Shown here one piece after another: positions 12,053-14,753 of a DNA stretch of 64,000 bases (position 1 is its first letter; every line of letters starts with the position of its first letter). Location of the stretch: IMG/VR virus record IMGVR_UViG_3300024264_000013, positions 1 through 64,000 of that record. One strand, written 5' to 3'. The stretch comes from a virus. The notes under the pieces are model-generated. The model saw only the letters and a list, made by a program, of their open reading frames with translations. It was not told the DNA's origin and searched no databases. Made by a program: the position numbers and the translations under genes.

Positions 12053-13225
12053 ATGTCAGAACTACTCGAAAGCCGCTGGCAGGAGACTAAAACTGCATTG
12101 TTGGAAGGCCTAAGCGGAACAAAAAAATCCGTTATGGGTGCAACTTTGGAAAATACTAGAAAGTATTTGTCAGAGACTGCAACAGCAGGTAGTACTTCAG
12201 CCGGTAACGTAGCAACTCTTAACAGAGTTATTTTACCAGTAATTCGTCGTGTAATGCCAACGGTAATTGCAAACGAATTAGTTGGCGTACAGCCAATGAC
12301 TGGTCCAGTGGGTCAAATCCACACACTAAGAGTCCGTTATTCGGACACTTTTAATGCAGGTGCATCAGGTGCAACTGCAGGTGAAGAAGCACTTTCACCA
12401 TTCAAGATTGCTGAGTCTTACTCAGGTGCAACAGACGGCAAAGCGGCAGCAACCGCGGCGCAAGAAGGTAGTGCCGGTAACAAACTAAGCATCCAGATCC
12501 TAAAACAAACTGTTGAAGCGAAAACTCGTAAGTTGAGTGCTCGTTGGACGTTTGAAGCGGCTCAGGACGCTCAGTCACAGCATGGTATCGATGTTGAAGC
12601 AGAAATCATGGCGGCATTAGCCCAAGAGATTACTGCTGAGATCGACCAAGAAGTTCTTGCTTCACTAAGAACACTTAGTGGTACAGCCGTTGAAACATAC
12701 GACCAAGCCGCAGTAAGTGGTACAGCAACTTTTGTTGGTGATGAGCATGCCGCGTTGGCAGTTCAAATTAACAGAGCGGCTAACTTAATCGCACAGCGTA
12801 CAAGACGTGGTGCTGGTAACTATGCAGTGGTAAGTCCATTTGCATTAACAGTACTTCAGTCTGCAACAACTTCAGCGTTCGCAAGAACAACTGAAGGTTC
12901 GTTCGAAGCACCAACAAACACTAAGTTTGTAGGTACATTGAACAACGCTATGAAAGTATATGTAGATACATATGCTGGCGATAGTACAGCAGTACTAGTA
13001 GGTTACAAAGGTTCATCTGAATCAGATGCACCAGCGTTCTACTGCCCATACATTCCATTAATGAGTAGTGGTGTTGTAATGGATCCGGATACATTTGAGC
13101 CAGTAGTGTCATTCATGACACGTTACGGCTATGTTGAACTATCCAACACAGCGTCTTCACTTGGTAATGCAGGTGACTACCTAGCGAATGTAGCGATTAC
13201 AAACGGTAACGTATCATTTAGTTAA
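12053..13225 (+). CDS. Major capsid protein (T4 gp23-like)
   Basis: LVGVQPMTGPVGQI..LR, VEAKTRKL.ARWT.E.AQD....HGID.EAE, EI..EIDQE, FYCPYIPL, F.P.....TRYG motifs. Confidence 0.97.
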   Translation: MSELLESRWQETKTALLEGLSGTKKSVMGATLENTRKYLSETATAGSTSAGNVATLNRVILPVIRRVMPTVIANELVGVQPMTGPVGQIHTLRVRYSDTFNAGASGATAGEEALSPFKIAESYSGATDGKAAATAAQEGSAGNKLSIQILKQTVEAKTRKLSARWTFEAAQDAQSQHGIDVEAEIMAALAQEITAEIDQEVLASLRTLSGTAVETYDQAAVSGTATFVGDEHAALAVQINRAANLIAQRTRRGAGNYAVVSPFALTVLQSATTSAFARTTEGSFEAPTNTKFVGTLNNAMKVYVDTYAGDSTAVLVGYKGSSESDAPAFYCPYIPLMSSGVVMDPDTFEPVVSFMTRYGYVELSNTASSLGNAGDYLANVAITNGNVSFS

Positions 13226-13245: not shown

Positions 13246-13273
13246 AAATAGGGCCTACGGGCCCTATTTTTTT
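13246..13273 (+). terminator. Rho-independent terminator after MCP
   Basis: AAATAGGGCC-TACG-GGCCCTATTT followed by T-run; C(UACG)G tetraloop. Confidence 0.9.
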
Positions 13274-13286
13274 GACTAAATATTAG

Positions 13287-13330
13287 TACGTTCATCCTAA
13301 GGGACGGAAGTAGCATAAGCGAAGGAACGC
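13287..13330 (+). ncRNA. Glutamine riboswitch, glnA-motif type
   Basis: P1 CGTTC(13289-93)/GAACG(13325-29)C; P2 TCC-TAAG-GGA; junction CGGAAGTA; P3 GC-ATAA-GC; E-loop strand GAAG; matches the glnA three-way-junction consensus as recalled; follows ACTAAATA (13275-82). Confidence 0.75.
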
Positions 13331-13355
13331 ACTTAACTGTAAAAGGAAGAGTGTT

Positions 13356-13508
13356 ATGAATCACAGAGACTTCGAAGCGGCTCGTAAAAAGATCCAAACG
13401 AAATTAGCACACAAAGCGATACATCGCAAACAGATGGAAAGACCACTGTCAAGACCACGTGCTGAAAAGAACATACTTAGTACAGACCCAAGATTACAAA
13501 AAATTTAA
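13356..13508 (+). CDS. Unannotated 50-aa basic peptide downstream of the glutamine riboswitch
   Basis: MNHRDFEAARKKIQTKLAHKAIHRKQMERPLSRPRAEKNILSTDPRLQKI*; SD AAGGAAG at 13343-13349. Confidence 0.7.
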   Translation: MNHRDFEAARKKIQTKLAHKAIHRKQMERPLSRPRAEKNILSTDPRLQKI

Positions 13509-13527: not shown

Positions 13528-13556
13528 TTGACTTTATATATAAAGTCTGTTATATT
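13528..13556 (+). promoter_or_regulatory. sigma70-type promoter with overlapping 18-bp perfect palindrome
   Basis: TTGACT-17 bp-TATATT; palindrome GACTTTATATATAAAGTC at 13530-13547. Confidence 0.65.
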
Positions 13557-13932: not shown

Positions 13933-14382
13933 ATGGGAAGACCATTAAACAAAAGAAACTTTGGTGCGCCAACAGCAGGTGGATCAGAGATTAAAGTAAA
14001 TTTTCATAACGGAACAGCAGTTAAAGAGGGCTATATTGTAAAACAAAAAGGCTCTAAGAGATTTGTGTGTGAAGAAATTGGTACAGGTGGCGAATTTACT
14101 TGTACACTAACAACTGGTAAATTACCAGCGGCATTAGCGGCAGGCGAAATGTCAATTTCAGTACAAGGTAATGATGCAGAAACTTATGGTGTAAGTAAAA
14201 TTACAGGTCGTAAAGTTACTGTTGCTTCACCGAGTGCAACTGGTACTAACGTATTAGCAGGAACATCATTAGCATTCCAAATGGGTGCCGCGGCAAGTGC
14301 CGGCGTTGTACGCATGGAAGAAGCAGGCGATGACAACACACTAGTTGGAACTGATGACGACGACTTTACAGAAGACGCATAA
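13933..14382 (+). CDS. Virion structural protein, possible head decoration (paralogue 1)
   Basis: Late promoter GATAAATA at 13840; strong SD; MGRPLNKRNFG start shared with next gene. Confidence 0.6.
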   Translation: MGRPLNKRNFGAPTAGGSEIKVNFHNGTAVKEGYIVKQKGSKRFVCEEIGTGGEFTCTLTTGKLPAALAAGEMSISVQGNDAETYGVSKITGRKVTVASPSATGTNVLAGTSLAFQMGAAASAGVVRMEEAGDDNTLVGTDDDDFTEDA

Positions 14383-14390
14383 GGAATAAC

Positions 14391-14753
14391 ATGGGTAGAC
14401 CAGTCAATAAAAAGAACTTTGGAGCAACTGGCGTTGATGCCACACCAACAATACCAATTCGATTTCATGATGGATCAAATTTAATTGAAGGTAAGGTAGT
14501 AAGTCAACGTGGTAACGGTAAATTCCTTTGTTCAAATGATGCTGGAAATATTACAAGAATCTGTCGTTTGGTGAATGAAATTTCACCGAACGCACAGTTC
14601 GAAGCATCGTTAATTGGTATTGCTCCAGGAAGTAGTCCAAAGGTTATAAAGAAGATACATAACAGAACAGCAGTTGATTGGGATGGCAATCGATATACAT
14701 GGGAATGTCAAGATGATTCTACAGAATCATTAATGATATTAACTGCTATCTAA
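14391..14753 (+). CDS. Virion structural protein (paralogue 2)
   Basis: MGRPVNKKNFG..., FHDG....EG.VV.Q.G..KF.C shared with previous gene. Confidence 0.6.
   Translation: MGRPVNKKNFGATGVDATPTIPIRFHDGSNLIEGKVVSQRGNGKFLCSNDAGNITRICRLVNEISPNAQFEASLIGIAPGSSPKVIKKIHNRTAVDWDGNRYTWECQDDSTESLMILTAI

Follow-up and report, generated by a model that had tools for sequence, protein, structure and literature searches.

A type-1 glutamine riboswitch behind the capsid gene of a marine jumbo phage likely gates a new family of micro-proteins

Why does a predicted glutamine riboswitch stand directly behind the major capsid gene of a virus, and which gene does it control? The locus that raises this question lies on a 96-kb IMG/VR virus fragment with a CheckV completeness of about 27%, of which the first 64 kb (positions 1 to 64,000, the whole stretch of DNA analysed here) are referred to as the window. 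The capsid gene (12053-13225) encodes a major capsid protein of the Gp23 family (Pfam) that is 67-70% identical to those of the jumbo myophages Vibrio phage 2.275.O, PA5oct, CBB and GAP32. The source is an uncultured marine jumbo phage of the Rak2/GAP32 type. A megablast search with this region found no match among 50,697 phage records; the phage is known from metagenomes only.

Downstream of the capsid gene follow, in this order, a terminator, a CTAAATA box, a glutamine-I aptamer, an SD-like AAGGAAG and a 50-codon open reading frame (Table 1). A preliminary description of the locus had proposed a phage-borne glutamine riboswitch that controls an unannotated basic peptide resembling glutamine synthetase (GS) inactivating factors, and inspection of the sequence found each of the features it listed in its place. 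We consider it likely that the locus is a self-contained late-expression cassette, composed of a T4-late-type box and a type-1 glutamine riboswitch that gates the micro-protein by way of its SD.

Table 1. Features of the cassette downstream of the capsid gene (window coordinates).
Feature	Positions	Strand	Basis or remark
Intrinsic-terminator-like hairpin and T-run	hairpin 13246-13269, T-run to 13273	+	ends the Gp23-family capsid transcript; sequence
T4-late-promoter-like (A)CTAAATA	13275-13282 (CTAAATA 13276-13282)	+	sequence
Glutamine-I (glnA RNA) aptamer, Rfam RF01739	13287-13333	+	51.6 bits vs gathering score 35, E 2e-8
Aptamer helices	P1 13289-13293/13325-13329; P2 13295-13297/13302-13304; P3 13313-13314/13319-13320	+	
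Linchpin C13330 and ACUU, 5' strand of the SD-masking (anti-SD) helix	13330-13334	+	duplex predictions, covariation
SD-like AAGGAAG (GGAG or GGGAG in relatives)	13343-13349	+	sequence, alignment
GAGUG, 3' strand of the SD-masking helix	13349-13353	+	abuts the SD, 3 nt before the start codon
Basic micro-protein gene, 50 codons, unannotated	13356-13508	+	ORF, 22 nt after the aptamer end

The box after the capsid terminator had been described as late-promoter-like, and it is present as described. CTAAATA agrees with the T4-type late promoter consensus (TATAAATA) at 7/8 positions. TAAATA is found 6-9 nt 5' of P1 in 55/59 related loci (6 nt in the window), the same terminator precedes the cassette in the closest relatives, and the Pelagibacter phage Mosig carries ATAAATA at the equivalent place before its aptamer. 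The box fits a T4-type late promoter, from which transcription would start at about position 13288, at the foot of P1. With 16 occurrences found and 20 expected, CTAAATA is not enriched in the window, and we rejected it as a genome-wide motif of the phage. The support for the box is positional, and we infer its promoter function on that basis.

We then searched the whole window on both strands with 4227 Rfam families. The RF01739 match spans the full model (1-53) and is unique within the 96-kb record. Every conserved base in the strands of the three-helix junction (CGGAAGUA and GAAGGAACGC) is identical to the RF01739 consensus. P2 (3 bp) and P3 (2 bp) are minimal in the window copy, and all of their pairs show compensatory changes among 77 related leaders; the invariance of P1 in this alignment was imposed by the search pattern. 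The compact three-way junction, previously read as a glnA-motif riboswitch, thus scores well above the gathering cut-off of that family and covaries in P2 and P3. By family, the element is a genuine type-1 glutamine riboswitch, and by homology it would bind L-glutamine. The preliminary description had also named the Downstream-peptide model for comparison; this motif (glutamine-II, RF01704) has no match in the window at the gathering threshold.

How could such an aptamer act on the ORF behind it? The preliminary description had proposed a translational ON switch, in which the 3' strand of P1 pairs alternatively over the SD and start region. A masking helix of the expected kind exists and covaries, in a register shifted by two from the one proposed. 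The proposed register (AACGC.CUU with AAG.GUGUU) is present in the minimum-free-energy fold; across the 77 leaders it shows no covariation (191/500 shuffles equal it), and we dropped it for this reason. The helix CACUU/GAGUG, in contrast, is 97.9% paired in the same leaders with compensatory changes at 3/5 pairs, one of which is UA in 42 sequences and CG in 29, although many of these sequences are related and the counts overstate the number of independent events. Slid control registers are 28-50% paired. In 95 distinct leaders, the duplex of the anti-SD strand with its own SD region has a mean of -6.2 kcal/mol, compared with -4.1 for partners taken from other classes. The helix is also kept in class variants of quite different sequence, namely CACCU/GGGUG, CAUCU/AGAUG, CAAUCU/AGAUUG, CGCCU/AGGUG and CUCUUU/AAAGGAG. 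When the aptamer helices are enforced, the predicted fold forms the hairpin between the two strands, and in a crude mimic of the bound state the unpaired probability of the 3' strand rises modestly, from 0.12 to 0.35, with the SD itself unchanged. The fold of the whole leader is no more stable than those of its shuffles (z = -0.24).

A close parallel is the leader of gifB, which encodes IF17 in Synechocystis sp. PCC 6803. In the model proposed for this leader, the RBS is paired to a linchpin C and the bases next to it, and this helix melts when glutamine binds; activation of expression by the gifB riboswitch was shown in vivo (Klahn et al., 2018; PMC6212724; structural summary in PMC11477058). 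C13330 holds the position equivalent to C68 of the gifB model. Both leaders belong to RF01739 with all conserved junction bases, both place the aptamer in the 5' UTR of a gene for a small basic protein, and in both the linchpin C and adjacent bases pair with the RBS region, implying translational activation by glutamine. Since this arrangement matches that of gifB, an ON switch in vivo, we read the window element as a translational ON switch, taking the direction from homology. The two systems also differ. The window switch is phage-borne, follows a T4-late-type box in place of a host promoter regulated by NtcA, and has minimal P2 and P3. Its masked segment is immediately 3' of the SD, whereas that of gifB spans the SD, and the window protein is unrelated to IF17, with no DUF4278 or IF7-like domain.

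Under the ON-switch model, in the absence of glutamine, the C immediately 3' of P1 and the next four nucleotides would pair with the GAGUG strand. Two inner pairs would reach the SD, and the ribosome-binding region would be held in a weak hairpin. Once glutamine is bound, C13330 would be recruited as the 'linchpin' partner of a G in the aptamer junction, the hairpin would lose its foot, the SD would open and the micro-protein would be translated. The micro-protein would in this way be made late in infection and solely at high host glutamine. As high glutamine signals a high host nitrogen status, the infected cell most likely has to be nitrogen-rich for the micro-protein to be made.

The ORF had been noted as an unannotated basic 50-aa ORF with an SD, and it proves to be a real gene under protein-level selection. 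Its product contains 7 Arg, 7 Lys and 3 His against 5 Asp/Glu, for a net charge of about +9. In public data, relatives form 30 protein clusters (73-94% identity), almost all with exactly 50 residues, and at least 279 viral contigs in IMG/VR encode relatives with a constant length of 50-51 codons. Across 32 distinct coding sequences, variable sites are distributed 26/21/43 over codon positions 1/2/3. The ratio of synonymous to nonsynonymous codon differences is 5891:4562 in frame, whereas the other two frames give 1207:9628 and 513:10094. When 1.84 billion representative proteins were searched with a profile, 52 matched, all but one of them small (31-101 aa).

Gene and aptamer travel together. 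In all 59 fetched loci whose peptide shares 75% identity or more, the aptamer is found 26-28 nt before the ATG, and the capsid gene precedes the cassette in 38 of them, so the pairing of riboswitch and ORF downstream of gp23 that the preliminary description asked about is conserved. In a sample of 20 loci searched with Rfam (15 of the 59 close loci and 5 from an aptamer pattern scan), every aptamer exceeds the cut-off and ends about 22 nt before the ORF; four related loci have tandem aptamers. Identity of the capsid proteins ranges from 98% down to 67%, which indicates that within this clade the cassette has long stood behind the capsid gene. The same layout recurs outside the window lineage: in Mosig (MT647606.1, L003:2419-2644), a T4-like Kyanoviridae phage, an aptamer scoring 50 bits lies 17 nt upstream of Mosig_00116, a 40%-identical homologue of the peptide, an arrangement independent of that lineage.

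Glutamine riboswitches are known in phages, both in cyanophages (PMC9964418) and in the OM43 phage Melnitz, in Mosig and in pelagimyophage MAGs (Buchholz et al., 2022; PMC9004378). In the latter study the riboswitch was assigned to the control of the phage tmRNA (ssrA), and the downstream micro-protein is unmentioned. The window element is of the same class as the riboswitches of Melnitz and the pelagimyophages, which infect marine heterotrophs, and Mosig has the peptide homologue behind its aptamer; unlike these phages, the window phage is jumbo-sized and belongs to a different lineage. The pairing of aptamer and ORF together with the SD-masking helix points to the small ORF, not the tmRNA, as the regulated gene, a finding that corrects or extends the published tmRNA-control reading.

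What, then, does the micro-protein do? AlphaFold, run with the family alignment, predicts a single helix at residues 3-28 (block mean pLDDT 81-92) and assigns low confidence to the C-terminal 22 residues (block mean pLDDT 56-66). The most conserved motif of the family sits in this tail, RPRAEKNIL followed by P.LQKI (P..Q.I) at the C-terminus. The protein is probably a basic helix with a conserved tail that is predicted to be disordered. A tail that carries the most conserved motif and yet is modelled with low confidence is a pattern typical of docking peptides, and accordingly the tail looks like a docking motif. Pfam, NCBIfam, PHROGs, a PDB sequence search and the ESM Atlas gave no match for the peptide, and the micro-protein is a new family, of which we found no published description in the literature searched. 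Four Pelagibacter phages encode homologues that equal the window peptide in length, share its C-terminal motif and are 38-47% identical to it: HTVC023P (gp47), HTVC103P (gp49), HTVC104P (gp51) and Mosig (Mosig_00116); these four cultured carriers all infect SAR11. Neither the 5 marine genomes with an aptamer nor the 187 genomes from a single order that we searched yielded a bacterial copy, a negative result of little weight. The R.R.EKN motif suggested an ArfA-like ribosome-rescue tail, as did the tmRNA link in the literature; the Pfam and PDB profile searches were empty, and the candidate was rejected.

The function of the micro-protein could plausibly lie outside all of the roles weighed below. 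A further source of evidence on these roles is the set of 491 further viral contigs that encode relatives of about 50% identity without an aptamer. In 10/79 sampled aptamer-less loci, the gene stands between a small Cys-containing signal-peptide-like protein and an M15 endolysin, with an N-terminal-TM coiled-coil protein near by. The signal-peptide-like protein lies 7 nt upstream of the peptide gene in 9/10 of these loci and 39 nt upstream in one, and the endolysin starts 1 nt downstream in 6/9 loci where it was found. In 68/79 loci the gene adjoins, and often overlaps, that of a tail-anchored membrane protein, phrog_2524. The copies of the podoviruses HTVC023P, HTVC103P and HTVC104P, also without riboswitch, are found beside TM/coiled-coil proteins, and the order in HTVC023P is peptide, TM-coiled-coil protein, peptidase M15. 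By association, these neighbourhoods suggest a lysis-module or membrane-associated role.

It is thus possible, if still tentative, that the micro-protein assists the lysis module or sets its timing, for instance as a cytoplasmic partner of a holin-like membrane protein, in which case the riboswitch would couple lysis timing to host nitrogen status. The endolysin and phrog_2524 neighbourhoods above, the HTVC023P arrangement and an amidase three genes downstream in one related locus (L086) are consistent with this role, and a link between the riboswitch and lysis has been the subject of speculation (Buchholz et al., 2022; PMC9004378). The argument is nevertheless one of guilt by association: phrog_2524 and phrog_20984 are without known function, the genes around the window copy encode head and fibre proteins and none is for lysis, and a search for phrog_2524 homologues in the 96-kb fragment of the phage itself, which is 27% complete, found none. 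Given the aptamer-less relatives in lysis-type clusters, the riboswitch could tie lysis timing, or another late decision, to host nitrogen status; if true, this would make for a new class of phage decision, gated by a metabolite.

The lysis-type cluster that holds the aptamer-less gene (L343-L351, L363; L072:633-2133; pelagiphage-like podovirus contigs) has a recurrent order, with the phrog_20984 TM-coiled-coil protein followed by two 72-aa proteins, the peptide and the M15 endolysin. One of the two 72-aa proteins has a signal-peptide-like N-terminus and several Cys.

A comparably tentative alternative is that the micro-protein is a small basic protein that resides inside the virion or associates with DNA. 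Because Arg and Lys are costly in nitrogen, such a protein would be made only when nitrogen is plentiful. The late-promoter-like box, the position directly after the major capsid gene over capsid identities of 67-98% and the net charge of about +9 all fit this role, as does the common aptamer-less context, which appears, judged by eye from translated ORFs and not by family search, to lie between the end of a portal-like gene and small basic head-type proteins. However, the peptide shows no similarity to known internal or histone-like proteins, and its sharply conserved tail suggests a specific docking partner over general charge neutralisation.

The preliminary description had suggested a third role, in GS inactivation, on account of an 'LSRxxAE' pattern that echoes IF7. 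We looked for DUF4278 (PF14105, YRG repeats) with Pfam and found none in the peptide at E up to 0.1 and none in 23 family members at E up to 10, while the positive controls matched (cyanobacterial IF17, 1e-21; a phage YRG peptide, 5.7e-7). For the IF7-type basic domain (R...RQQ.ML.R.A.E.G), we compared the profile of the peptide family with an IF7-like profile of 10 domains from cyanobacterial genes behind an RF01739-type aptamer, which gave a probability of 0.1% (hhalign). The cyanobacterial genes fetched from behind the glnA aptamer encode both full IF17-type and short IF7-like proteins. The absence of DUF4278 and the 0.1% probability rule out homology to IF7/IF17: judged by its sequence, the peptide is a member of an unrelated family, and the 'LSRxxAE' echo is a short resemblance at chance level. 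The trait that it does share with IF7/IF17, of being small, strongly basic and largely unstructured, is generic and not diagnostic.

It would still be conceivable, but is quite unlikely, that the peptide is a phage analogue of IF7/IF17, made at high glutamine to inhibit the host glutamine synthetase. The regulatory logic is the same as that of gifB/IF17 (PMC6212724), the peptide is small and strongly basic with a conserved tail that is probably disordered, true DUF4278/YRG peptides stand behind the glnA aptamer on other phage contigs, and in marine heterotrophs the aptamer precedes ORFs that by eye resemble glnA, amt and gltB. These parallels are set against the lack of DUF4278 where the controls match, the hhalign result and the empty NCBIfam, PDB and Pfam searches. 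In addition, the four cultured carriers infect SAR11 and not cyanobacteria, and the aptamer-less homologues occur in lysis-type or membrane-protein clusters, not beside nitrogen genes. No sequence evidence favours a GS-directed function by analogy, and an effector on host nitrogen metabolism, such as on GS, is unlikely.

That the ORF is instead a leader or by-product, with the riboswitch controlling read-through into a manA-type RNA and the genes beyond, is very improbable: this RNA follows the stop codon at a distance of 63 nt, again lies downstream of the ORF in the relatives L053 and L124, and is separated from the ORF by no terminator that we could find, but the peptide is under amino-acid-level selection, its gene occurs without riboswitch in about 490 other phage contigs, a covarying helix masks the ORF's own SD, no terminator-type expression platform is found at the switch, and a strong sigma70-like promoter of its own (10/12 matches, extended TG) precedes the manA RNA.

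Gating of the micro-protein by the riboswitch may be one instance of a wider pattern. At least 120 viral stretches match an aptamer-core pattern, and in the 120 examined the aptamer is almost always followed by a basic ORF of 20-81 codons. Grouped by motif, the micro-ORFs behind phage aptamers (L103-L222) form at least 8 families, only the YRG group being IF17-like, and many of these families share the same expression platform as the window. It is possible, though we put it forward tentatively, that glutamine riboswitches are a general gate in marine phages for varied micro-protein effectors, including the 50-aa family.

The kinds of micro-ORF seen include, besides the window family, a 64-aa family with G.GTSGY, YRG/DUF4278 peptides, 28-38-aa 'WCF' and 'W..YCR' peptides and a 32-aa 'NNWQL' peptide, and a family of 45-49 aa ending in NPFYP is always found behind tandem aptamers. 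Profile comparison rejected the window peptide as a member of the 64-aa family (1.5% probability) or of the PFYP family (0.1%), and the 64-aa family was likewise rejected as IF7 (0.1%). In marine picocyanobacteria, the Downstream-peptide or glutamine-II motif (RF01704) is associated with IF17-like DUF4278 peptides (Weinberg et al., 2010; PMC2864571). These systems resemble the window in placing a glutamine-sensing leader before a very short conserved ORF and differ from it in aptamer architecture; the window peptide is also without YRG/DUF4278.

Single or tandem aptamers were also seen in single-cell and metagenome-derived genomes of marine Alphaproteobacteria (one of them SAR116) and SAR86 (L236, L244, L254, L283, L298, L275), where by eye the ORFs behind them resemble ammonium transporter, glutamine synthetase and glutamate synthase genes (amt, glnA, gltB). 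In a Gammaproteobacteria MAG (L296), tandem aptamers precede a basic peptide of 54 aa whose C-terminal end resembles that of the phage NPFYP family.

The riboswitch class is known and ordinary; of interest is its setting, phage-borne, probably late and likely gating a new micro-protein family. Phage riboswitches have rarely been tied to a defined output, and the output identified here is a conserved micro-protein common to abundant ocean phages, present in four isolates that infect SAR11 and in at least 770 contigs of IMG/VR. The case would be one of a virus that reads a host metabolite late in infection, and it is testable in the cultured phages Mosig and HTVC023P. Should lysis timing, virion assembly or host nitrogen metabolism prove to be what the micro-protein acts on, ocean nitrogen availability would be linked to the outcome of SAR11-type infections.

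Further structured RNAs and genes lie beyond the cassette. The manA-type RNA (RF01745, 13571-13776) scores 56.3 bits against a cut-off of 55.2 and is preceded by the sigma70-like promoter at 13528-13556 (TTGACT, 17 nt, TATATT, with TG); its carrier here is a jumbo phage and not an evident cyanophage. In relatives, a 'freshwater-2' RNA (RF02980, 58-71 bits) is found just downstream of the cassette (L016:1671-1741, L020:1690-1774, L124:4540-4623), which suggests that the inter-gene region of this phage clade collects structured RNAs. The manA RNA is followed in the window by adjacent paralogous genes at 13933-14382 (149 aa) and 14391-14753 (120 aa), whose products both start with MGRP..K.NFG and gave no family match. 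Downstream of the cassette, 22 related loci also keep the 149-aa paralogue.
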